Shown here: positions 2,229-17,258 of the stretch, one piece after another
Layout: every line of letters starts with the position of its first letter
How positions within the stretch are numbered: position 1 is the first letter of the stretch
Source: a virus
Strand: one strand, 5' to 3'
Virus genome (UHGV): UHGV-0359583
DNA: 49,950 nt
Program-made: the position numbers and the translations under genes
Notes under the pieces: generated by a model
The model's input: only the letters and a program-made list of their open reading frames with translations
Database searches by the model: none
Told to the model about the DNA's origin: nothing

Positions 2229-2930
2229 CTATGCAATAATTATTTTTTTATTGGTTATTTTTTCTATTTCTTCTTTAAATTTTTCTGGATCACTATTCTT
2301 GTCGCTTAAATGGATGAGATATATTTCTTCTGTTTTTGTTAAATCAGTTGACTGAAAAAACTTTTTGCAGGCATCTATGCTCATATGCGTTCTTAAAATT
2401 CGATCTTGAACACTTTTTGGTAGTTTGCTCTGTCTTACTAACTTGATATCATGATTACACTCAACGAGCCAATGAGTGACGTCTTTAAACGTTGTAGGTA
2501 AATAGTTAGTATCTGTAGCAAATACTATTTTCTTTCCACTAGGTGAAAGAATAAGAAAGCCCAGTGGTTCTCTCGCCCGTGCCTTTTTGTCATCGTGAAT
2601 AGTGGCAAAAGGTTTAACTAACCAATCACCAATTTTCTGTTGCTGGTTAGCTTTTAAAATATGTGACCGTCTATTTATACCTAATCCTTCTAAAGTTCCT
2701 CGTGAGGCCCACACATCAAATCTTCCAGCGAGTAAAATATCATTGATATACTTTGAGTGGTCACCATGTTCATGTGTTACAAGTAAACCTTGAATATTTG
2801 AAAAATTAATACCTTGTTTCATAATATGTTTAGGCTTTAATCCTGCTTCTAACATTAAGGAAGAATTTCCATCTGCAAGCAAATAATTATTACCTGCAGA
2901 TGAAGATCCTTGTATATTAATTTCAATCAT
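2229..2930 (-). CDS. Metallo-beta-lactamase-fold hydrolase (possible nuclease)
   Basis: HxHxDH motif 'LLVTHEHGDHSKY'. Confidence 0.75.
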   Translation of the reverse strand: MIEINIQGSSSAGNNYLLADGNSSLMLEAGLKPKHIMKQGINFSNIQGLLVTHEHGDHSKYINDILLAGRFDVWASRGTLEGLGINRRSHILKANQQQKIGDWLVKPFATIHDDKKARAREPLGFLILSPSGKKIVFATDTNYLPTTFKDVTHWLVECNHDIKLVRQSKLPKSVQDRILRTHMSIDACKKFFQSTDLTKTEEIYLIHLSDKNSDPEKFKEEIEKITNKKIIIA

Positions 2931-4102: not shown

Positions 4103-6241
4103 CTATTTCCCCTCCGTTTTGTGATCTTGGATTCGTAAAGTTTTATCATCTTCATTTACATACATAGCAATAACTTGAGTGTCTACTTGAACAGAGTCTC
4201 TATTGTGATTAGTCAAACCTTCAGCGTTATCGATAAAAATTGGAACGATATAGCCTTCCTGTTTCATTAGAGTGTTGGATACGTCTAATCCAGCTTGCAT
4301 CCTGCTTCCGTTATTTAGAGAACTGAACGGTACCCCGTCAATCATCGGCTCACATACTGCTTCATTTAGTCCTCCATCTTCAAAGAAATCGAACAATTTC
4401 CATTTAACAACTGAGAAATGACTATTTATAATTTCTTGCAGCATGTTTTGTTTTGTTATAAAGAATTCTTCAAATAGTACTAATTTTTGTAATACTTCGC
4501 CTTTCTTATGAGATAATTGGCGCTCTTGTTCATTGAAATCTTCAATAATCAATAACTGCCTTTCATACTCTTTTAGCAAGGCTAATTTTTCATCAATCAT
4601 TGCGATTTCTTTATCTATTTCTGTAATCTCACTTGTTTTAGCGGAAGTTTGTTCTAGAATAGCTTTGTTACTTTGAGTAATGTACTCTTGCAATTTTTTT
4701 ATTTCTTTAGTTATAGTTGAATATTTTTCAGTTGCTTCAAATGGTATTTTGTCTAATTTTAATGAGGAAATCTGCTGCTCTACATCAGCTAAGTTTTCCT
4801 TCACATCTTCCAAGTGTTTTTTAGCAATGTTATATGCTTCTGTTTTAATCAATAGTTGTTCTTTTAACTCGCCGATTTCTTTTTTTAGGGCTTCGCGATC
4901 TTTGTTATTTTTAATACCTTTTTCTCGAATTTCAGAGAGCTTGATTTGCTTATCCGCTTCAAACTGGGCTTTTATTTCTTTATTTGTTGACTCAATTTCT
5001 TCTGCACGTTTTTGTTCTTCTTCCTCATGATGTCGTTTCATTTCATCTTGATCCTTGACATCATATGGACGATTACAGTGCTGACAAATTAAAAGATTTT
5101 CATTAAATGATAATTTGGTATAAACTAGACCGCCTGTAAATTCTTCAGCTTCTACTTCATCATATTTGTCGTACAATTCTTCATGCTTTTTATTTAATGC
5201 AATCAGTTCATTATCTTTTATAGAAACCAAACGTTCTGTTACATTAAGACTTGATTCTTCATCTGCATACGTCTTCTGGGCTTTATTGAGATCAGCAAAG
5301 AGTTTTGATTTACCTTGCTCAATGCCATTAATGCGAGCATTCTGTGCATTATCATGCTTCAATTTAGCAGCAGTTAATTCTTCTTGTTTTGTATTAAGAC
5401 TTGCAATTAATTCTGAAATATTACCACCATTTCTAATAGTAACGAGCTGGTTTTCGATGTCATTTTTCTTTAATGTCAACTCGTTACGAGTGGTTAATAG
5501 TTGCTCTTTGTTGATATTTTTAATATCTGGCAATGCTGCTTGAATACCTTCGATTTTTACAGGAATATTTTTCAGCGTTTCGTTGATTCGCTTTTGGTCT
5601 TGAAGCACACGATCACGAGCTGTTTTAATGTCATCATTGCCAATAATTTCTTTTAATTGTTGAATTGATGGTGTTTCGTTGATAATCTCTTCATCTGTCT
5701 TGCTGCCAAAGTATTCAAAAAGCTTTTGACGTCGTTCATCTGCCACTAACTGCTCACAAAAATAAGTCACACTAGTCAGATTCTTAAATGTGTCTTGATC
5801 TAATACTTTTTCTACTTCATCGTCAAATGCTTTCTTTGTGGTGGTCTCTAATCCGTCTACGAGGTATTTTGTAAACATCTCATAAGACTTGTGTTCCGAA
5901 TTTCGTTTGATGACTTCTTTGTCTCCTCGGACCTTTTCAAACTCCTTTGCCTGACCATTGATAGCTAAAACGACAGTTACTGATGTCTGTTTACCGCGAA
6001 TCGGCTCGCTATTTTCATCAAGTGGTCTCCACTGGATTTTAGTTCGTTCTTTTGAATCTTTGTTGAACAAGCACCAGAGAAAAGCATCATAGATAGTTGT
6101 TTTGCCTGCATCGTTGTCTCCAAAAACATCAATACTTTTACCATTTGGTTCAATCATCAGGTCCGATATACCTTTAAAATTATGAATACGGATTGACTCC
6201 AAGCTAATGTTTTTCATACAATTAATCTCCTTCAATTTCAA
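4103..6241 (-). CDS. SbcC/Rad50-like SMC-family ATPase
   Basis: N-terminal Walker A 'GDNDAGKTT'. A long coiled coil with a central CxxC 'CQHCNRPY' (zinc-hook-like). C-terminal 'IVPIFIDNAEG' resembles Walker B. Confidence 0.6.
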   Translation of the reverse strand: MKLKEINCMKNISLESIRIHNFKGISDLMIEPNGKSIDVFGDNDAGKTTIYDAFLWCLFNKDSKERTKIQWRPLDENSEPIRGKQTSVTVVLAINGQAKEFEKVRGDKEVIKRNSEHKSYEMFTKYLVDGLETTTKKAFDDEVEKVLDQDTFKNLTSVTYFCEQLVADERRQKLFEYFGSKTDEEIINETPSIQQLKEIIGNDDIKTARDRVLQDQKRINETLKNIPVKIEGIQAALPDIKNINKEQLLTTRNELTLKKNDIENQLVTIRNGGNISELIASLNTKQEELTAAKLKHDNAQNARINGIEQGKSKLFADLNKAQKTYADEESSLNVTERLVSIKDNELIALNKKHEELYDKYDEVEAEEFTGGLVYTKLSFNENLLICQHCNRPYDVKDQDEMKRHHEEEEQKRAEEIESTNKEIKAQFEADKQIKLSEIREKGIKNNKDREALKKEIGELKEQLLIKTEAYNIAKKHLEDVKENLADVEQQISSLKLDKIPFEATEKYSTITKEIKKLQEYITQSNKAILEQTSAKTSEITEIDKEIAMIDEKLALLKEYERQLLIIEDFNEQERQLSHKKGEVLQKLVLFEEFFITKQNMLQEIINSHFSVVKWKLFDFFEDGGLNEAVCEPMIDGVPFSSLNNGSRMQAGLDVSNTLMKQEGYIVPIFIDNAEGLTNHNRDSVQVDTQVIAMYVNEDDKTLRIQDHKTEGK

Positions 6242-7957: not shown

Positions 7958-8002
7958 ATTTTCACCTCCTATCCAAATATAAAGAGTCATAACGAGTCAT
8001 AG

Positions 8003-8188
8003 TTACTCAAAAAAAATTGTCCAATCAAAATCTAAGATTGATGCGATTCGCATAGCACTTTCCACAGACGGCCTTCTTCTTCCCTGTTCAATAGATGCAT
8101 ACGTGGTTCTTGAAATTTCCGCTTTAACGGCAACCTCTTCTTGAGTCATTTTATTTTTTATACGCAATTTCAATAGCCAATCTCTCAT
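8003..8188 (-). CDS. Cro-like XRE-family HTH regulator. The start is reassigned to an internal ATG; the ORF track gives 8003..8257.
   Basis: The GGGGGA SD lies 6 nt before ATG(8188). HTH 'MTQEEVAVKAEISRTTYASIEQGRR'. A sigma70-like promoter sits upstream (-35 TTGACA at 8254..8249, -10 TATTAT at 8231..8226). Confidence 0.7.
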   Translation of the reverse strand: MRDWLLKLRIKNKMTQEEVAVKAEISRTTYASIEQGRRRPSVESAMRIASILDFDWTIFFE

Positions 8189-8353
8189 TTTGTGTCCCCC
8201 TTTATGTGTCGTATTGCGTACTTTTATAATACTACGCATTCTGACACATGTCAACAATTAATTACTCTTTTTGACACATTTAATATATTTAACTTCAAAC
8301 TACGCAGATTGCGTAGTATTATATGTACATAACGAATCGTAGGAGGTAACATT
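8189..8353. promoter_or_regulatory. Divergent genetic-switch region with TACGCA/TGCGTA operator half-sites
   Basis: The plus promoter has -35 TTCAAA at 8294-8299 and -10 TATTAT at 8317-8322. Its 17-nt spacer is the perfect palindrome CTACGCA-gat-TGCGTAG (8300-8316). The minus promoter's spacer contains CTACGCA (8232-8238). A further TGCGTA lies at 8215-8220. Confidence 0.55.
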
Positions 8354-8677
8354 ATGTTCGGTACACGTTTAACAGAATTAAGGAAACAAAAAAAATTAAC
8401 ACAAACTGATGTTGCAAATGCACTTGGTGTAGCTAGAACGACTTACTCTTCCTATGAACAAGGAAGAAGAACTCCAGATATAGATATCCAAAATAAGATT
8501 GCTGACTATTTCAATGTAAGTTTAGATTATTTACATGGGAGAGAAAGTTTTGAAGATACTTCCTTATCAAAAAAACAATTAACCGTCGCTGCTCATATAG
8601 ACGATGACGTTTCAGATACAGAAATGAATGAGATTCTCTCTTTCATTGATTATATTAAGAAACGCGATCACAAATAA
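8354..8677 (+). CDS. XRE-family phage repressor (ImmR/CI-like)
   Basis: AGGAGG SD. HTH 'LTQTDVANALGVARTTYSSYEQGRR'. It is followed by an ImmA-like gene. Confidence 0.75.
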   Translation: MFGTRLTELRKQKKLTQTDVANALGVARTTYSSYEQGRRTPDIDIQNKIADYFNVSLDYLHGRESFEDTSLSKKQLTVAAHIDDDVSDTEMNEILSFIDYIKKRDHK

Positions 8678-8697
8678 TTAAAGTAGTAGGTGTTTGA

Positions 8698-9162
8698 ATG
8701 GTAACTTCAGAAGAACTGATGGCTCGCTTTTCAGATTTAACGTATAAGTTTGAACCAAACATGCCAGAAAAGCAAAAAGGATTGTATATTAACAATGTTG
8801 TGTATTTAAATCCTCAACAACATCCTAGAGAATTAACTAGTACAGTTGCAGAGGAAATTGGGCATCACCTCACATCGGTTGGTGATATAATAGATCAAGA
8901 TACAAACGAAAAAAGAAAACAAGAACAAAAGGCTCGTGATATCGGAGCAACAATGGTTGTGACACCTCAAGATTTGATTAACTGCTATCATGAACGTTTT
9001 ACATATGTTTGGGAATGCGCCGATTTCCTAGGCATTACAAAACAAGCCTTGGAATGTGCTTTAGCTGCCTATTCCAAACAGTTTCCCGAAGGTCTTGTAT
9101 ACGGCGATTATAAATTGTTTTTTAAACCTAACGGTACATTGGGGATTGTTAAATGGTTTTAA
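8698..9162 (+). CDS. ImmA/IrrE-family (DUF955-like) metallopeptidase-like anti-repressor
   Basis: Size and position downstream of the XRE repressor. The degenerate zinc motif 'EEIGHH' replaces HEXXH. Confidence 0.5.
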   Translation: MVTSEELMARFSDLTYKFEPNMPEKQKGLYINNVVYLNPQQHPRELTSTVAEEIGHHLTSVGDIIDQDTNEKRKQEQKARDIGATMVVTPQDLINCYHERFTYVWECADFLGITKQALECALAAYSKQFPEGLVYGDYKLFFKPNGTLGIVKWF

Positions 9163-9189
9163 ATAATAATCTAGATAAGGAGATTTAAA

Positions 9190-9786
9190 ATGAAAAAAAG
9201 TATTTTTTTAGGATTAATTGTAGCTTCAGCACTATCACTAGGGGCATGTTCGAGTAACAAGGAAGATGCTACTCAAGGCTCCGCAAAACTACGTACTTCA
9301 AGTAAATCTGAAGAATCTTCTACTTTAACACAAGAAGAAAAAATCCCGACTGTAAATCGAGCTGAATACAACGTTAGCTTTTCTGAAGATTGGCAAGGTT
9401 TAAAAACTAGTATATCTAAAGTAGTTATTGCTGAACTTTCAAAAAGCGAAATGGAAAATCAAAAACTTGAAAATAGATATGTAGCTCAAGTATATTTTAA
9501 AATTGAAAATACTTCTGATAAAGACTTTAATGTTTATCCAGACCAAGGAACTTTAGTAATTGAGGGCCAACAAATTGATGCTGATATGTGGTTTAGTGAT
9601 GATTTAGGTGGAGAGATATTACATGGCGTCACAAAAGAAGGCCTGGTAACATTTTCAATCCCTAAAATTTCAAATGTCGATAACGTACCAAATATAAGAT
9701 TAATCTGGCGAGCCAACTTTGATACAGATAATTATAATGAGGAATCTTCAAAAGACTTTGACGTTTCTTTTGATTTAACAAAATAA
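9190..9786 (+). CDS. Lipoprotein (possibly DUF4352-like); candidate superinfection-exclusion protein
   Basis: Signal peptide with lipobox 'LSLGAC'. It lies in the lysogeny module, followed by the terminator at 9793-9820. Confidence 0.65.
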   Translation: MKKSIFLGLIVASALSLGACSSNKEDATQGSAKLRTSSKSEESSTLTQEEKIPTVNRAEYNVSFSEDWQGLKTSISKVVIAELSKSEMENQKLENRYVAQVYFKIENTSDKDFNVYPDQGTLVIEGQQIDADMWFSDDLGGEILHGVTKEGLVTFSIPKISNVDNVPNIRLIWRANFDTDNYNEESSKDFDVSFDLTK

Positions 9787-9792
9787 TTATTG

Positions 9793-9820
9793 AAAAGCTT
9801 GTGGGCTTTTCTTTTATTCT
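9793..9820 (+). terminator. Rho-independent terminator after the lipoprotein gene
   Basis: GAAAAGC-ttgtgg-GCTTTTC followed by TTTTATTC. Confidence 0.6.
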
Positions 9821-9858
9821 TTGAAGAAATGACAAACTAGAAAAGTTGGTGATATATT

Positions 9859-11427
9859 ATGGATAATTTTTTAACTCCTTTATTGAATAAAGCAGACTCC
9901 ATGCCGTTTTTATTTCTTGGTTCAGGTTTTTCAAGACGTTACTTAAATACTCCCACATGGGAAGAATTATTAAAACATATTGCACAAATAACATATCAAA
10001 ACAATACTGGGTTTCAAAAAGCAAAACGTAAGGCTTCTAAACTTTATGATGAAAACCTTGCATATAATAAGCATATGACATACCTTTGTGACCTTATCTC
10101 CGATGACTTAGATGAAATTTGGTACGATGATCCTCGTTTTGAAGAAAACAGAAATCGATATTGGGATCTTGTTGAAAATGATTCTACTCCGCCTGTAAAA
10201 ATTGAAATTGCTTGTTATCTAGAAAAATTTCAAAAATTTACCGAAGAAAACATTTTAGAATTAGATGCATTAAAAAAAATAACACCTAACTCAATTGCAG
10301 GTATTATTACGACAAATTATGATACATTACAAGAACAACTTTTTGATTATGAAGTATATTCATCACAAGAAGAACTCTTATTCCATACAAAATATGATAT
10401 AGGTGAAATTTATAAAATTCACGGATGTATTAAAAACCCAAATTCAATTCTTATTAATTCAGACGATTATAAACAAATTGAACTTAAACACAAATATATT
10501 GCAGCTAAATTATTAACTATTTTTGTCGAACACCCTATTTTCTTTTTAGGGTACTCTCTTGGTGATGAGGACATACGAAATATATTGAATGATATTCAAA
10601 TTTCTCTTACTTCAAAGCAATTAAAAGAAATTGAAGATAGATTATTTTATGTGGTTTGGGATGAATCTCAAGAACATTTTTCTCATTCTACACATAGTAT
10701 AAACTTTGATAACGGTAGAAGTATAACAATTAAACAAATTTCATTAAATGACTATTCATTTTTATACAACGCTTTAAGCAAAAACAAATCACGTTACCCA
10801 GTTAAAATGTTACGTCACGTAAAGGAAGATATGTATAATCTTGTTTTGACTAATGATCCTACCGAGAGGATGTTATTAACAATACCTGATAAAGAATTAT
10901 CAAAAGAAGAGATGGAAAAGATTGAGTTTGTATATGGGTTTGGCATTATGGAAAGAGCTCGAAATGGTTATAAAATAGTTTCAACTGAAGAAATATATAA
11001 AGATGCAGTATTTGACACCGCTAACTTAAATCCTGAACTATTTGTAAAAGAAACCCTAACTTATGCACTACAAAAAAGCAGTGGTTATATACCAATTAGA
11101 AAGTACACTTCACAGGTTGAATACTCATCTTTACCCAAACAAGTTAAAGATAATCTAAAAAGATTTAATAAAATTGACGATTTGTTAAGTCAAAAATTGA
11201 TTGGCTATAAGCGTTCATTAACTGTACCACCTACTTTTAATGATGCGTTAAAAAGTCCTTCAAAAATGATTTATGACAATCTATCGATAGTTTCTTATAA
11301 TAGTAATAATATTGAATTATTGGGTGATTATCTCAAAAATATTCTAGACAAAGACGAATTTACCACTACAACTGAAATCAGAAGGTTGATACGAATCTAT
11401 GATTATTTTAAATACAAAAAAAGCTAA
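9859..11427 (+). CDS. SIR2-family (ThsA-like, SIR2_2-type) putative NADase with a non-SLOG C-terminal domain
   Basis: Motifs 'LFLGSGFS', 'IITTNYDTL', 'IYKIHGCIKNPNSILINSDDYK' and 'IFFLGYSLGDEDIRNIL' match ThsA SIR2 'IFAGAGLS', 'TTNYD', 'VYKMHGDV...LIKDDYEK' and 'FLFVGFSFTDPNLDYIL'. RBS is GGTGAT. Confidence 0.65.
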   Translation: MDNFLTPLLNKADSMPFLFLGSGFSRRYLNTPTWEELLKHIAQITYQNNTGFQKAKRKASKLYDENLAYNKHMTYLCDLISDDLDEIWYDDPRFEENRNRYWDLVENDSTPPVKIEIACYLEKFQKFTEENILELDALKKITPNSIAGIITTNYDTLQEQLFDYEVYSSQEELLFHTKYDIGEIYKIHGCIKNPNSILINSDDYKQIELKHKYIAAKLLTIFVEHPIFFLGYSLGDEDIRNILNDIQISLTSKQLKEIEDRLFYVVWDESQEHFSHSTHSINFDNGRSITIKQISLNDYSFLYNALSKNKSRYPVKMLRHVKEDMYNLVLTNDPTERMLLTIPDKELSKEEMEKIEFVYGFGIMERARNGYKIVSTEEIYKDAVFDTANLNPELFVKETLTYALQKSSGYIPIRKYTSQVEYSSLPKQVKDNLKRFNKIDDLLSQKLIGYKRSLTVPPTFNDALKSPSKMIYDNLSIVSYNSNNIELLGDYLKNILDKDEFTTTTEIRRLIRIYDYFKYKKS

Positions 11428-11462
11428 CCATAGATGCAGTAATGAAGATTTACTTCACTACC

Positions 11463-11566
11463 TCTAGGGGGTTAGCTCACATGGAAAATACTTTTCAAAT
11501 TTATTATAACTCAAAATTATATTTTTGAAAAGTATTTTTCGCTCCCTAGAAAAGAACGTACGTTCT
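11463..11566. repeat. Long imperfect hairpin plus a perfect 14-bp palindrome immediately downstream of the SIR2 gene
   Basis: Arms at 11484-11499 and 11524-11540 (GAAAATACTTTTCAAA / TTTGAAAAGTATTTTTC). Outer arms CTAGGGGG / CTCCCTAG. AGAACGTACGTTCT at 11553-11566. Confidence 0.6.
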
Positions 11567-11940
11567 TAATATAGATTAAACACTAAGAATAATCCAAAAT
11601 TAATTAATAATATTCAATACATCTATTCTATTTATCGTATAAAAAATTCTAAATCCAAAAGAATAATACTGACCTTACCTTACTAATTTTGAGATAGATT
11701 GAAATGAGATGTTCTAGAGTATGAATTATTCCTATTTTAACCAACCAGTATTATAGTGAAGAAAAACAGTCGGAATTCTAAGATCAACTAAAATAAAAAG
11801 GATACTGAGACTGGAAATGTAGATAACCTCCCCTATTTGCACGACAAAAAAAGAATTAATAATGAATCAATTCTATAAAAAAGATTGGTATAAATACAAA
11901 TTATTATCCCACCAAAATCTATGTTCAGGAGTGAAAACAA

Positions 11941-13167
11941 ATGGCTTCAATCAAATCTTATACACTAAAGAATGGTCAAGAACGTTGGGAATACTTCGTT
12001 TCAAATGGACGTAGCAATGGTACTGGCAGGCAACAAAAAATACACAAGAGAGGTTTTAGAAGTCATAAGGAAGCTTTGAAGGCTGCAAAAATAATTGAAG
12101 GGCAAATTGCATCTGAGGAATTCGTTAAAGAAAACCCACAAAAAATGACTATTTCAAAATTTATGAATATATGGATCAATGAGTATAAAAACAATGTTAA
12201 GGAAGGATCACGAATTGTCTATCGAGATGCTATCCGTATGTATATTGATCCATATATAGGAAATTATCAATTAAATAAATATAAACCTGCAGATCACCAA
12301 AAATTTATTAATAGCTTATTTACGAATAAAGAATTAGGAAAAAATAAAAACGGCCTCAGTTATAACACAGTAAAAATTGTAAATGCCGCCTTGTCCAATG
12401 CTTTCAAAAAGGCACAAAAATTAGGTTATGTAAAAAGTAATCCGACCTACTTAGTAGAGTTTCCATTAGATAAAGTAAAAGAAAAAAATAATAAAGAAAA
12501 GAAACTAGAATTCTATACTTTAGAACAGGAAAATCTGTTCCTCGACACTGCAAGAAATTTTGATGAGTATATGTGGTATGTATTTTTTTTAATTATTTTT
12601 GATTTAGGATTGAGAAAAGGTGAAGTAATGGCCTTACGATGGTTTAACTTTGATTTTAGAGATAATATTCTCACATTTGACAAGCAACGTTTATATAGAA
12701 AAGAGCGACCTGGTCAAGTAATTTTAGATGACGTTAAAACTGACGCTGGAAAAAGAAGTTTAAAAATGACAAACAGAGTAAGAAATTCCGTATTAGAATT
12801 ATATGGCATTAATTACGATCTCACAAATAATGTATTACCAATGACAAAATCAAACAAAGATTTTTTGTTTATAAATAATAGAGGAAAAAATGTCGGCTTA
12901 CCAATACGCCAACGTTCTGTAGATACTGCTTGGCACCGAATTATTAATAAAGCTCAATTACCAAAAATTAGAATTCATGACGGTCGCCATACTAATGCTG
13001 CTCGTTTACGACAAGCAGGAGTTCCACTTGAGGATATTAAAGACATGCTTGGTCATAAGAACGTTAAAACAACTGAGATATATGCACACGTATCTGCTGA
13101 AGTTAAAGAACGAGCTGTAAATAAACTTGAATTATATCAAATGCAAAACAAAAAATCAGGTAACTAA
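11941..13167 (+). CDS. int: Tyrosine recombinase (phage integrase)
   Basis: C-terminal catalytic region 'RHTNAARLRQAGVPLEDIKDMLGHKNVKTTEIYAHV'. Confidence 0.85.
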   Translation: MASIKSYTLKNGQERWEYFVSNGRSNGTGRQQKIHKRGFRSHKEALKAAKIIEGQIASEEFVKENPQKMTISKFMNIWINEYKNNVKEGSRIVYRDAIRMYIDPYIGNYQLNKYKPADHQKFINSLFTNKELGKNKNGLSYNTVKIVNAALSNAFKKAQKLGYVKSNPTYLVEFPLDKVKEKNNKEKKLEFYTLEQENLFLDTARNFDEYMWYVFFLIIFDLGLRKGEVMALRWFNFDFRDNILTFDKQRLYRKERPGQVILDDVKTDAGKRSLKMTNRVRNSVLELYGINYDLTNNVLPMTKSNKDFLFINNRGKNVGLPIRQRSVDTAWHRIINKAQLPKIRIHDGRHTNAARLRQAGVPLEDIKDMLGHKNVKTTEIYAHVSAEVKERAVNKLELYQMQNKKSGN

Positions 13168-13190
13168 AACGTTACCTGATTTTATTTATA
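13157..13190 (+). terminator. Rho-independent terminator overlapping the int stop codon
   Basis: CAGGTAAC-taaaac-GTTACCTG followed by ATTTTATTTAT. Confidence 0.55.
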
Positions 13191-13192
13191 AA

Positions 13193-13485
13193 TGTATCAC
13201 CAAATGTATCACCAAAAATATTTCAAAGCAAACATCTTTGTATCACCACAAAGCTAAAAATCAGCTTAGAATGCTATTTTATAGGCGTGCATTCAAATCT
13301 TTTGCTAATTCTTCAAAACCTGGTTTACCTAATAAAGCGAACATGTTGCGTTTGTTAGTTGAAATTTTTCCATAGATTTCATTCTTTCCAATTACTTATA
13401 TATCAATGATTTATTAGTTATTGAAGTCTTTCACTATTTACATTTTTTTCATAGATATTTTAGATGTATCACCAAATGTATCACC
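13193..13485. repeat. Five copies of TGTATCACC (two tandem pairs plus one) and three CATAGAT motifs; candidate integrase arm-type sites / attP region
   Basis: TGTATCACC at 13193, 13205, 13239, 13465 and 13477. TTCATAGAT-like motifs at about 13367, 13449 and 13499. Confidence 0.5.
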
Positions 13486-13578
13486 ATTTATTTTTATCAT
13501 TTCATAGATTTACAAAAATTCCCTATAGACAAAACGAACATACATTCGATATAATTATATTACTAGGAGGGCGATAGT

Positions 13579-13827
13579 ATGAAAACTAATTATGTAGGAG
13601 TAGTCGAAAAGATTAGAATGTTAAGTATGCACCCAAAAATGCTTGTTCGATTCTCATTAGTAACACCGGACGAAACTATAAACTGTATCGTCTCCAAACA
13701 CGAGCTGGCAAATACGCTACTAATGTTACCTGAAAAATCTGAACTAGCTGTCTATGGTCATTTGAATAAACGAAATCAACTTGTCATTGATAAAATGCTT
13801 GTAAGAAATTTTTTGATTAGTGTATAA
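13579..13827 (+). CDS. Hypothetical 82-aa protein; a stand-alone gene between the att region and a bidirectional terminator
   Basis: Strong SD AGGAGGG; the terminator follows immediately. Confidence 0.5.
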   Translation: MKTNYVGVVEKIRMLSMHPKMLVRFSLVTPDETINCIVSKHELANTLLMLPEKSELAVYGHLNKRNQLVIDKMLVRNFLISV

Positions 13828-13870
13828 AAAATAAGCCTCGCTCTCTATATGGAGCGAGGCTTTCTTTATT
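13826..13870. terminator. Bidirectional rho-independent terminator
   Basis: AAGCCTCGCTC-tctatatg-GAGCGAGGCTT (perfect 11-bp stem) flanked by A-rich and T-rich tracts. Confidence 0.7.
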
Positions 13871-14003
13871 GACCGTCTAAGCAGTCATCTTCAATTTCAA
13901 CATATTGTATTATCATGTTTACGTCACTGATATACAGCACTTTCTTCATGAGCTCTTTTTCTGATATTTCTTTTAGCTTTAAAAAAAGATCAAATGCGTT
14001 CAT
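13867..14003 (-). CDS. Small ORF (45 aa), third gene of the accessory cassette
   Basis: Its ATG follows the upstream gene's TAG stop directly (TAGATG). It ends at the terminator. Translation: MNAFDLFLKLKEISEKELMKKVLYISDVNMIIQYVEIEDDCLDGQ. Confidence 0.35.
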
Positions 14004-14894
14004 CTAAGCTAGTACTTTTTCCAATTCTTCAACTGGCTGCGCATACTTCTCTATGTGAATCAAATCTTCATTGAAGGATTGTTCTCCTTGAGTGCTAAAT
14101 ATATCATAAGCAATAACTCTTTCGTCTTTACTAGTTAAATAATTTATCATTTGATCTAACGTGCCATCAATATTAGACTCACTCAAAGAATTGTATACTA
14201 AAGTAAACTTATCCGCTTTATAATAATTGTCCGTTATAAAACTCATTCTTTCAAGCCAATCATAAGATGATGTAATTTTATCAGGAGCAGATTGAATAAA
14301 CTCTAATCCATGATCAAATTTATAACCAAAATCAATACTATATGATTTTGGAAGTTCCTTAACAGGCTTAATTTTTATATTTTTCTTGATTAATTTATCC
14401 AAATTATTTTTTTTATTTATTAACTGTATAGCTTTCTTTTTAACAACCATAGAGTTGCTACCAAGCTCTTCATTTAAAAATTTGCTCCCTACGTATTCTT
14501 CAAGCAAATTATTAAATAATAGGTCGACATTACTTGATTTAGCGAAGCGAACATCAGAAAATACAAAACCTTTTGGAAGGTTCTGACTTACAAATTGATT
14601 TATAAATGTCTCAGAAGACGGGTTTAAGCCAAAGCTTAAATTATTATTATCTACAGACTTTAAAATATGATTAAAAACGTCATGACCTAACTTATATGTT
14701 TTTTCGTCAACTTTCGAATTCAAAATTGCCTTAAATTTACTATTTTTTGGGGTTAATATCTGGTATTTTACTTCCCCACTTGAGGGTATGTTCATAACTA
14801 TGCCTATATTGATTATTTCGCCTTTTACAACATTTGAAATATATCTAATTATTGAATACCAGACGACTCTTCGTTGCTGTATGATTCGTTCCAC
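14004..14894 (-). CDS. DUF3037-like protein; downstream partner of the HipA-like kinase
   Basis: N-terminus 'VVWYSIIRYISNVVKGEIINIGIVM' resembles the DUF3037 family opening (from memory). GTG start with a GGAGGT SD inside the last 46 nt of the upstream gene. Confidence 0.45.
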   Translation of the reverse strand: MERIIQQRRVVWYSIIRYISNVVKGEIINIGIVMNIPSSGEVKYQILTPKNSKFKAILNSKVDEKTYKLGHDVFNHILKSVDNNNLSFGLNPSSETFINQFVSQNLPKGFVFSDVRFAKSSNVDLLFNNLLEEYVGSKFLNEELGSNSMVVKKKAIQLINKKNNLDKLIKKNIKIKPVKELPKSYSIDFGYKFDHGLEFIQSAPDKITSSYDWLERMSFITDNYYKADKFTLVYNSLSESNIDGTLDQMINYLTSKDERVIAYDIFSTQGEQSFNEDLIHIEKYAQPVEELEKVLA

Positions 14895-15826
14895 AATAAA
14901 TCACCTCCAGTATGATTGGAAAATAAATTGGCCCTTACGATTTTATTTATTATATCCTTTACTATCAGCCTTTGTCTACTAAGAAAATCCAAATAAACTT
15001 TCCGTTGTTGATCTCCAGATATTGTCCATTCTTCTGGTATCTCTCCTAAAATAAAAGTTAGTTCATCTTTACTAATCTTTTCTATTGAATCAATAATTCT
15101 GCAAAAAGGGTTATTACCTGTCAAATCAATATTATTCTGCATTCCTTGAAATACAGGTCCGAAGGTAAACCCCCCACCATGTCTCCTGAACTGGTTCAAA
15201 AGCCACTCATCATAATTGGGATTTTCATTAACTTTCAATAACTTCATTTTTGCTGTATCAAAATTAGGAGTGCCAAAGGCGTGTCCATGATCTATGGCAT
15301 AAACTTTTCTTAAACCCGATTCACTCCCAATCAAAAGGTTACCAAGATTAGAAAATCGATCACAATTTTGAACAAATATATCGAACGCAATTATATCAGC
15401 ATATGCTTCTGGATTCGAAACATTGTTTAAATACCCTGTCCAAGTCCTTTTAACTTTTGGTAAACCATTATTTACACCGAGTGAAATACTCTCAGCTAAA
15501 TTGTCTTCTACATCATTCACTTCTTCAGTCGCGAAATACAATCCTGGTTTAAACTTTCTGCTAAACATTAACTCAGCATTAGCTTCTATAAAATCCTTCT
15601 CCAATTCAATTATAGCAAAATTAGGCACTGGCACCTTTAGATGTTTAGCTAACAGCGAGCACAATAGTTCCTGAAAAAACACAGCATTCTGCTTTGTTGA
15701 GTTAACTATCTCAGTTTTTAAAAAGTATCTTTTTCCATTTTCTGCCGTTATTTTTATAGGCTTAGATTGACCAACTTTAGGAGATGGTTCATTCAAATAC
15801 GTTTCAGCAAAAAACTTATCTACCAT
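14849..15826 (-). CDS. HipA-family (HipT-like short form) serine/threonine kinase-like protein
   Basis: 'VGQSKPIKI' matches the HipA P-loop-like region. 'QELLCSLLAKHLKVPVP' matches 'NEYLTMKLAEAAGIPVP'. 'FVQNCDRFSNLGNLL' resembles the catalytic loop 'IGNTDDHLKNFSLL'. 'AIDHGHAFG' resembles IDFGH. GAGGAG SD. Confidence 0.6.
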   Translation of the reverse strand: MVDKFFAETYLNEPSPKVGQSKPIKITAENGKRYFLKTEIVNSTKQNAVFFQELLCSLLAKHLKVPVPNFAIIELEKDFIEANAELMFSRKFKPGLYFATEEVNDVEDNLAESISLGVNNGLPKVKRTWTGYLNNVSNPEAYADIIAFDIFVQNCDRFSNLGNLLIGSESGLRKVYAIDHGHAFGTPNFDTAKMKLLKVNENPNYDEWLLNQFRRHGGGFTFGPVFQGMQNNIDLTGNNPFCRIIDSIEKISKDELTFILGEIPEEWTISGDQQRKVYLDFLSRQRLIVKDIINKIVRANLFSNHTGGDLLWNESYSNEESSGIQ

Positions 15827-15870
15827 ATTCTTTTCTCCTCATTAATGATTTATATCTACTTACTATTATT

Positions 15871-15912
15871 AAACCAAAAAGAAGTTGCAAAAACAAGCGT
15901 TTTTGCAACTTC
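15871..15912 (-). terminator. Rho-independent terminator (minus strand) between tRNA-Met and the kinase cassette
   Basis: Perfect 14-bp stem GAAGTTGCAAAAAC / GTTTTTGCAACTTC with a 4-nt loop, followed by TTTTTGGTTT on the minus strand. Confidence 0.7.
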
Positions 15913-15984
15913 TATAGCAGATATAATCATATGAGGATTATTTATCAATTATAACAAACACTCGTTCGTAAATCAATGATTTTA

Positions 15985-16058
15985 TGGACCATGACGGATT
16001 CGAACCATCGACCGAACGGTTATGAGCCGTTTGCTCTAACCAACTGAGCTAATGGTCC
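15985..16058 (-). tRNA. tRNA-Met (CAT anticodon; could be an Ile-lysidine type), with no encoded CCA
   Basis: 7-bp acceptor stem GGACCAT/ATGGTCC. D-arm GCTCAGTTGGTTAGAGC. Anticodon stem-loop AACGG-CTCATAA-CCGTT. T-arm GATGG-TTCGAAT-CCGTC. Confidence 0.8.
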
Positions 16059-16151
16059 TGAAAAGAGCCGCCTTGGGGAAGGCGACTCAAGAGAAATTTA
16101 AATAAGTGTAAGTTTATTCTAAACTAAGGGTTACAGAAAATCAAGCTGTTC

Positions 16152-17258
16152 TTAATATCCAGTACCCCAAGTGTTTGATGGATTGCCATCATTTGGACCA
16201 ACAGGAATGTAAATTCTAGTTCCGTTTGAATCAGAACCACCTAAAAAAACATAGCCATCTGCTACACGAACTGAATCATACTTAAAAGTAGAACCTTTCG
16301 GCCATACTCCGTAAACGGGCGCTGACAAGCTCGGCGCACCGTTGCGAAGAACAATGCCTTCATTTACGCCAATGGTGAATGTTTTAGCTGGTGTTGGTTT
16401 GCTACTTTCCCACAATTCCGCAATATCACCATCGTTTGCATAACCTAGTAATTTGCCGCTGTTTTCGATACGATATAAATTTTTACGACCGTCTAGTTTT
16501 TGTGTAATTGTTCCAACTTGCGTCCACAAACTATCTGCATTGATATGTTGGCTAATTGGCGCATCTGGATTTTTGTAGATTGTTGTGAAGCGAACGTGTT
16601 GACCTACTTTATATTTTGGTGCGTTCGGCTTTCCAGGGTTCACAATCGTTTCTGAGCCATCTTCTGGCAATCCTGTTTGCAAATCTTGGGCTAACTGTGC
16701 CTTATTGATGCCCCACTGCGCTAAATATCCGTAAGGGTCTGTATGATCGCCCCACCAATTTTTAGTAATCCAATCATGCGTTACGATTCCGTATCCTGTT
16801 CCATCATCCAAGTCAAATGTTGCACCAATTTGTGTTGCTAAATCACGAATCAAATTGACATAGGCAGCATAGTCTTTCTTGAATGTTTCTTTATTATTCG
16901 TTCGAGCAAGTTCGATCTGTGCATATGCTTTTGCATTGGCTGTTGCTCCTGCACCCCACTGAATTTGACCAGCTGGCGCTAACTGCTTCACTCGACCGCC
17001 AGAACCGACAAAATATGAAACATAAGCACTCGTCCAGTTTCGTTTCATATATGCCGTTTCATTGTCTAGACTGTTTGGGCCAACGTTGTTCCCATTTCCT
17101 GATTCATGTAAGACAATTAATTCGTTAGTCGCATAACCTGGAAAATATCCGCCAAAATCGATAGGATCTTGTTCCACTTGATAAGCATCTGCGGCAGTTG
17201 GTAACAATAATCCTGTAACTACAACTAATGATAATAAAAACTTACTAAATTTTTTCAT
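16152..17258 (-). CDS. Endolysin: Sec-signal N-acetylmuramoyl-L-alanine amidase (Amidase_2-like) with C-terminal SH3b-like repeats
   Basis: Signal peptide 'MKKFSKFLLSLVVVTGLLLPTAADA'. Amidase-like motifs 'IVLHESGNGNN', 'NAKAYAQIELA' and 'IVTHDWITKNWWGDHTDP'. It lies in the lysis module after the holin. Confidence 0.7.
   Translation of the reverse strand: MKKFSKFLLSLVVVTGLLLPTAADAYQVEQDPIDFGGYFPGYATNELIVLHESGNGNNVGPNSLDNETAYMKRNWTSAYVSYFVGSGGRVKQLAPAGQIQWGAGATANAKAYAQIELARTNNKETFKKDYAAYVNLIRDLATQIGATFDLDDGTGYGIVTHDWITKNWWGDHTDPYGYLAQWGINKAQLAQDLQTGLPEDGSETIVNPGKPNAPKYKVGQHVRFTTIYKNPDAPISQHINADSLWTQVGTITQKLDGRKNLYRIENSGKLLGYANDGDIAELWESSKPTPAKTFTIGVNEGIVLRNGAPSLSAPVYGVWPKGSTFKYDSVRVADGYVFLGGSDSNGTRIYIPVGPNDGNPSNTWGTGY

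Follow-up and report, generated by a model that had tools for sequence, protein, structure and literature searches.

The Enterococcus faecalis temperate phage genome UHGV-0359583 (49,950 nt, analysed here as a whole and referred to as the window) carries at 9859..11427, on the plus strand, a gene that starts with ATG and encodes a 522-residue protein composed of a SIR2 domain and a C-terminal domain (CTD). We believe that this SIR2-CTD protein is probably a single-protein, phage-triggered abortive-infection effector of the PDC-S25 family, acting by depletion of nicotinamide adenine dinucleotide (NAD+) and carried by the prophage as a moron. A preliminary description of the same DNA had proposed a defence effector of this kind, and every computational test that it named beforehand came out in favour of the proposal. 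The protein is a member of an already catalogued family and is not new as a class, and the mechanism put forward for it follows the ThsA/DSR2 pattern.

Membership of the family was established by profile matches covering practically the whole protein. Residues 3-520 aligned with positions 12-515 of the 517 in the PADLOC model PDC-S25 (PDLC04968, E=1.8e-142), and residues 8-521 with positions 6-527 of the 531 in phrog_2695 (E=2.8e-154), a PHROG without assigned function; the PADLOC ThsA and Dsr1 models matched the SIR2 part only. PADLOC represents PDC-S25 by two models, PDLC04968 and PDLC04967, and the homologues from phages and genomes matched both. The window copy agrees with the rest of the family in its length and two-domain architecture and, like them, stands as a single gene. 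It also shares 100% identity with the RefSeq entry 'MULTISPECIES: SIR2 family protein [Enterococcus]', present on 239 contigs, and the DNA-level search of INPHARED with the SIR2 gene or the lysogeny module returned only fragments of 69-77 bp. The phage defence candidates (PDCs) are 145 single- or multi-gene cassettes, explicitly untested, which were called because their homologues sit embedded in BREX, DISARM or type I restriction-modification (R-M) operons (bioRxiv 10.1101/2024.01.29.577857). The string PDC-S25 was not found in the supplements of that paper, and in the literature we found it named in text only once, where it is listed for an E. coli O157:H7 strain.

The SIR2 domain comprises residues 1-330 (9859..10848, plus strand) and is of the SIR2_2 type, similar to those of ThsA, DSR2 and KomC. 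The ThsA/SIR2_2 motif set had previously been read from the translation, and this is confirmed here by the four motifs (FLFLGSGFS at 17-25, IITTNYD at 149-155, IYKIHGC...INSDDYK at 184-205 and IFFLGYSLGDEDIRNIL at 227-243), by the Pfam model SIR2_2 (PF13289; residues 149-250, E=2e-20, 73.7 bits against a cut-off of 24.5 bits) and by structural comparison. The motifs include GxGxS at residues 21-25, TNYD with N153 (10315-10317), and H188 (10420-10422). In a phmmer alignment to BcThsA (6lhx), with positions counted by hand, N153 and H188 corresponded to N112 and H152, which are the catalytic residues of BcThsA. Both were invariant in an alignment of 63 homologues, as expected for a genuine SIR2 protein, and so were G21, G23, R27, T152, Y154 and D155. 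With the 63 homologues as input, AlphaFold2 produced a whole-protein model with a mean predicted local distance difference test score (pLDDT) of 86.4, in which residues 1 to about 330 form a SIR2 domain of the alpha/beta type that contains a helical insertion. When this model was compared with the PDB by Foldseek, the top matches were defence NADases only, namely DSR2 (8wyb, E=5e-10), BcThsA filaments (8bto) and KomC (9xvc, 8zsf), and every one of them ran through the SIR2 half; phages are the trigger of all three of these NADases. The Pfam scan of the 522 residues disclosed nothing else significant, NCBIfam had no model for the protein, and there was no match to the canonical sirtuin model (SIR2, PF02146). 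Since the protein contains three cysteines only (77, 119 and 190) and no CxxC pairs, it is devoid of the zinc ribbon of the canonical sirtuin deacylases. Judged by its sequence, the N-terminal domain carries the complete catalytic set of the defence NADases.

The region beyond the SIR2 domain had been described as a C-terminal domain of about 240 residues. This figure has to be corrected, as the SIR2 domain extends to about residue 330 and the CTD proper, of about 150 residues, follows a disordered linker of some 40. The linker (10849..10965, plus strand; residues 331-369) was modelled with low confidence (pLDDT below 50 at 332-344 and 353-369) and holds a conserved E356 and a G360-F-G362 motif. 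The CTD (10966..11424, plus strand; residues 370-522) is specific to the family and, when modelled alone, gave a compact structure of 12 helices (pLDDT 89.6; predicted template-modelling score 0.80). Since it is all-alpha, it is neither a SLOG nor a Macro domain, both of which are alpha/beta in ThsA, and no SLOG or Macro match to it was obtained, in agreement with the earlier remark that it lacks such features. Foldseek found no relative of the CTD in BFVD (best E=1.7), and its profile gave one borderline and unconvincing match among the PDB sequences (2l5q_A, E=0.009). When 1.84 billion representative proteins were searched exhaustively with a hidden Markov model of the CTD, 753 clusters were obtained, 458 of them at E<1e-10. 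All full-length matches in the top 150 were SIR2-CTD proteins of 500-567 residues, with the CTD running from about residue 340 to the end; nine out of ten mid-length matches scanned were N-truncated SIR2 fragments (the other had no Pfam match), and the sampled matches of about 200 residues began at an internal Met of the same protein. Shuffling of the CTD onto other proteins was considered and rejected, as the CTD matches inspected were fused to this SIR2 domain only. The CTD evolves faster than the SIR2 domain (mean pairwise identities of 32% and 46%, respectively) and is most variable at residues 420-500, keeping as invariant polar residues D382, K415, Y416 and D515 and, in its last helix, a conserved RRLIRIYDxxKY. 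Such a pattern of conservation would fit a recognition or regulatory module.

Relatives of the protein were found in at least 553 species (one genome scanned per species) belonging to Bacillota, Desulfobacterota, Verrucomicrobiota, Bacteroidota, Lentisphaerota, Thermotogota and other phyla. We surveyed the neighbourhoods of the best 80 species-representative loci, 45 of which had full flanks, by clustering the neighbouring open reading frames and identifying the clusters with Pfam. A type I R-M context was present in 25 of the 80 loci (14 of the 45 with full flanks), where the gene lay inside the operon or abutted it and was co-directional with those of HsdM, HsdS and HsdR in the orders hsdM-hsdS-SIR2-hsdR or hsdR-hsdM-hsdS-SIR2. 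An integrase context was found at 13 loci (nine of those with full flanks), eight with a tyrosine and five with a serine enzyme, and the integrase gene usually lay directly 3' of the SIR2 gene, on the same strand and at a distance of 250-1200 bp, the gap in the window being 513 bp. Embedding in R-M operons is a feature of the PDC-S25 family; the window copy lies instead in a prophage lysogeny module. The survey disclosed no obligatory partner, since no neighbour cluster occurred in more than 21 of the 80 loci (26%). The preliminary description had reported no TIR gene nearby, and the wider search agrees: no TIR or ThsB model (PADLOC, Pfam) matched any of the 25 genes within about 10 kb of the SIR2 gene, no recurrent neighbour cluster in the 80 loci was TIR-like, and neither a TIR partner nor a common neighbour was seen in 11 homologue contexts inspected individually. 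Some of the R-M islands of PDC-S25 relatives also hold YhcG-type PDDEXK nucleases or Schlafen/AlbA_2 proteins.

The position of the gene between the repressor/ImmA pair and int had been called a hotspot for defence morons, and this holds when different phages are compared. The same slot recurs in unrelated prophages, with tyrosine or serine integrases. In E. hirae, a different prophage integrated at the same pgi site shows the order ImmA ... SHOCT - SIR2 - int, and in two further prophages the gene lies between a cI-type repressor (accompanied by ImmA in one of them) and a serine recombinase. The copy in Streptococcus phage Javan227 is directly 5' of int, and ORF30 of Lactococcus BK5-T is flanked by lysin and int and is annotated with a putative promoter and terminators of its own. 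Bacillus phBC6A51 carries a homologue in a moron slot, as Javan227 and BK5-T do, and the proteins of all three are PDC-S25 by model match. Other copies were found at the lysis end of a Brevibacillus prophage, in a mobile element of Staphylococcus, and in an L. paracasei island with AbiE, SMODS and Eco57I-type enzyme/restriction genes. Within the lineage of the window, hotspot behaviour could not be demonstrated. Each of the 10 places inspected that have the identical integrase also has the SIR2 gene, and the index counts agree (360 versus 358 blocks), which indicates that the gene is a fixed part of a common prophage, and, as it stays invariant behind the same int, hotspot behaviour is seen only across lineages.

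Comparison with known systems places the protein, by its SIR2 domain, in the class of SIR2 NADase effectors. ThsA of type I Thoeris is a SIR2-SLOG NADase activated by glycocyclic ADP-ribose (gcADPR) from the TIR protein ThsB. Its SIR2 domain is homologous to that of the window protein, with the catalytic Asn and His aligned, and it is the closest sequence match among the solved structures; however, ThsA has a ligand-binding SLOG/Macro domain at its C-terminus, to which the all-alpha CTD is unrelated, and a ThsB/TIR partner, of which there is no counterpart near the window gene or recurring in the 80 loci. DSR2, the top Foldseek match, is likewise encoded by a single gene and combines an N-terminal SIR2 NADase with a helical C-terminal sensor region, so that it represents the best working analogy. 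Nevertheless, DSR2 proteins, which the phage tail tube protein activates, have about 1000 residues and a long HEAT-like C-terminal sensor, and a protein of 522 residues falls outside that group. DSR1, KomC (Kongming), SIR2-HerA, SIR2-STAND and the SIR2 proteins of prokaryotic Argonaute systems belong to the same effector class for NAD+ depletion; the PADLOC Dsr1 model matched the SIR2 core (E=2.4e-10) and KomC was matched by both sequence and structure searches, but neither the large C-terminal region of DSR1 nor KomA/B with deoxyinosine triphosphate (dITP), HerA, STAND or Argonaute is present with the window protein. It also differs from a canonical sirtuin deacylase, which carries both PF02146 and a Cys4 zinc ribbon. 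In its ecological role it would be analogous to Abi-alpha (ef2833) of E. faecalis V583 prophage 6, a single-gene abortive-infection determinant that lysogens express and that is found widely in prophages of Gram-positive bacteria (PMC6356687), although Abi-alpha is an unrelated DUF4393 protein with a premature-lysis phenotype and no SIR2 domain.

On the analogy of ThsA, DSR2 and KomC, which we extend to expression, latency, CTD trigger and NAD+ hydrolysis alike, we propose that the SIR2-CTD protein would be made in the lysogen, from transcription running past the upstream terminator or starting at a promoter not yet mapped, and that the CTD would keep it inactive. Upon infection by another phage, the CTD would sense a phage-derived protein or signal and switch the SIR2 domain on, probably by oligomerisation as in those three systems. 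NAD+ would then be hydrolysed and depleted and the infection would abort, with protection of the lysogen population and of the resident prophage. Were this true, a very common E. faecalis prophage would give its host an NAD+-depleting abortive-infection gene, with relevance to enterococcal phage therapy and to prophage competition in polylysogens, and the trigger of the PDC-S25 CTD, once found, would bring a new sensing module into SIR2 defence. The value as a discovery is limited, since PADLOC already lists the family as PDC-S25 and the mechanism follows an established pattern.

Several observations weigh against an abortive-infection effector. We found in the literature no published experiment on PDC-S25 or on an equivalent SIR2-CTD architecture. 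In the matches inspected the CTD was never seen on another effector, so that its role as a sensor rests on analogy only. Among the 45 loci with full flanks, 23 had neither an R-M nor an integrase context. The SIR2 gene is invariant and not swapped in the prophage lineage, exact look-up of int returning SIR2-bearing prophages only, and no credible promoter was found between the terminator at 9792-9820 and the SIR2 ATG. Finally, a SIR2_2 domain could in principle perform another NAD-dependent reaction, of which SIR2 folds support several. This last point, together with the fixation of the gene in the phage and the want of a known function for its PHROG, would suit an enzyme that serves the phage itself, either as an NAD-dependent ADP-ribosyltransferase or deacylase or as a degrader of NAD-derived immune signals, modifying host or phage proteins or blunting host immunity on behalf of the temperate phage. 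Against such an enzyme, the gene is oriented with the lysogeny genes and not with the lytic ones, many relatives are chromosomal and lie in R-M operons or defence islands away from any phage, defence NADases make up all of the nearest structures, and neither the zinc ribbon (the protein having three Cys) nor a match to the canonical sirtuin model is present; we therefore give it little credence. The location just after cI/ImmA in the lysogeny module could also be that of an addiction toxin, a latent NADase that would kill cells losing the prophage or the repressor and thereby stabilise lysogeny, and SIR2 NADases are indeed toxic when active, as known from the studies of ThsA and DSR2. Considering that no conserved antitoxin-like small gene stands alongside and that many homologues are outside mobile elements, we find this very improbable. 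As to a degenerate Thoeris, that is, a ThsA that lost its ThsB partner, the idea draws on the ThsA match among solved structures and on the PADLOC ThsA match, which covers residues 137-311 only. It is effectively refuted, and the gene was rejected as a Thoeris fragment, because the ThsA model was matched at 102-219 of its 478 positions, i.e. in the SIR2 part, the CTD is all-alpha and not an alpha/beta SLOG or Macro domain, no TIR gene exists among the 25 window neighbours or recurs in the 80 loci, and the two-domain architecture is conserved in the 753 representative clusters.

The relation of the family to type I R-M systems deserves separate weighing. The protein may be a guard in the manner of PrrC, a latent SIR2 NADase held by a type I R-M complex or monitoring it, which would fire when a phage anti-restriction protein disables the complex; the prophage copy would then be a mobile version acting on the Hsd proteins of the host itself. 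The 25 loci (14 with full flanks) embedded co-directionally in hsd operons argue for it, and so does the derivation of the PDCs from such embedding, a situation of which PrrC is named as the classic example in the source paper (10.1101/2024.01.29.577857). On the other hand, no hsd genes are near the window copy or the other prophage copies, any one Hsd neighbour is present in at most 26% of the loci, and R-M operons also house many unrelated defence genes that are not functionally coupled to them (10.1101/2024.01.29.577857), so that we consider this guard unlikely. It is tempting to speculate that the CTD of about 150 residues is a new sensor fold that makes the protein a compact and self-contained SIR2 guard, detecting either a conserved phage component or, like PrrC, the loss of type I restriction, and of which the prophage copy is a portable form. 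Sensing of anti-restriction would explain why about one third of the family is inside hsd operons. We advance this idea tentatively, as a possibility on the doubtful side.

The gene is preceded by a GGTGA ribosome-binding site (9848..9852, plus strand), read from the sequence 6 nt 5' of the ATG, and its GC content (0.284) is lower than the phage average (0.346). It had been described as a transcription unit of its own, and the flanking structures support this by half only, the missing element being a convincing promoter. On the 5' side, a terminator-like hairpin with a T-run (9792..9820, plus strand; stem-loop at 9792-9811 with a stem of 8 bp and 3 GC pairs) closes the cI-ImmA-lipoprotein operon 39 nt before the start codon; terminator-like sites were six in the region, against 1.9 +/- 1.4 in shuffled sequences. 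On the 3' side, a large structure (11463..11566, plus strand) follows the stop codon and consists of a stem-loop at 11463-11551 (-43.9 kcal/mol, z=-5.9), which none of 200 shuffles equalled in folding, and, directly after it, the perfect palindrome AGAACGTACGTTCT at 11553-11566. No T-run comes after this structure, which is probably a transcription stop or an insulator. Promoter-like matches in the region were at chance level (37 versus 30.1 +/- 5.4). The sole site between the terminator and the ATG, at 9829-9858, was rejected as a dedicated SIR2 promoter, as it overlaps the ribosome-binding site and would initiate after the ATG. Another promoter-like site, TTGACG-18-AATAAT, was noticed at 9758-9787 (plus strand), where the lipoprotein gene ends; transcription from it is predicted to start inside the left arm of the 9792-9811 hairpin and, speculatively, such a transcript would be unable to form the terminator and would read into the SIR2 gene.

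The neighbours of the gene were as first described, i.e. the repressor/ImmA pair, a lipoprotein, an AT-rich spacer and int. A cro-like helix-turn-helix (HTH) protein is encoded at 8003-8257 (minus strand) and is followed by the upstream lysogeny operon (8354..9786, plus strand), made up of a cI-like HTH repressor (8354-8677), an ImmA/Peptidase_M78 protein (8698-9162) and, as last gene and directly 5' of SIR2, a DUF4352 lipoprotein (9190-9786). The latter has a signal peptide and a lipobox Cys, belongs to phrog_3727 (no assigned function) and had no match in PADLOC; it could be a superinfection-exclusion lipoprotein. At the other side, a spacer of 513 bp and 27% GC separates the SIR2 gene from a tyrosine integrase gene in the same direction (11941..13167, plus strand).

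The window is identical to integrated copies of the phage up to 13355, where those copies run into pgi. The 37-nt att core of V583 pp3, experimentally determined at the 3' end of ef1416 (Matos et al. 2013, PMC3675006), has a single exact match in the window, at 13319-13355 (minus strand). It is part of an attP-type region (13183..13486) in which ATGTATCACCAAATGTATCACCA repeats at 13190-13214 and 13464-13486 flank the core on either side and are probable integrase arm sites. Past the core come a moron pair, a tRNA-Met gene and the lysis, tail, head and terminase genes, and not host chromosome. Since phage genes continue beyond it, this is an attP-type junction, as in a circular or excised form or in a tandem prophage, and the complete chromosome CP117970.1 has the same att arrangement. 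By its sequence, this widespread temperate phage of E. faecalis integrates at the 3' terminus of pgi, which is also the site used by V583 pp3. It has been reported that the virulent phage Idefix makes plaques about 3-fold smaller whenever V583 pp3 is present, the causal gene being unidentified (Lossouarn et al. 2019, PMC6356687). The SIR2 gene, if V583 pp3 carries it, might be behind this mild interference, which we mention as a lead only.

A second candidate was observed across the att site, at 14004-15826 (minus strand). It is composed of a HipA_2-type kinase (14849-15826; PADLOC PDC-M66A, E=6.3e-12) and an overlapping DUF3037 protein (14004-14894; PDC-M66B, E=8.8e-10), and, as this PDC-M66 pair stands between attP and the lysis module, candidate defence morons are present on both sides of the attachment site. 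Between the pair and the endolysin gene there is a tRNA-Met (CAT) gene (15985-16058, minus strand), the only match in an Rfam scan of 8000-16200, and a second phage tRNA gene, for tRNA-Lys (TTT), is at 44114-44200 (minus strand). In the early region, two genes encode a metallo-beta-lactamase (MBL)-fold hydrolase (2229-2930, minus strand; Lactamase_B_2) with a weak precomputed match to the Anti-Pycsar Apyc1 family, and a 712-residue SMC/AAA_23 ATPase (4103-6241, minus strand) with a weak PADLOC resemblance to LmuB, PbeC and GajA. Both are probably replication or recombination genes, an anti-CBASS/Pycsar nuclease being a less likely role for the MBL protein. Lastly, self-BLAST of the window revealed a perfect palindrome of 26 nt at 43327-43352, 5' of the terminase genes.

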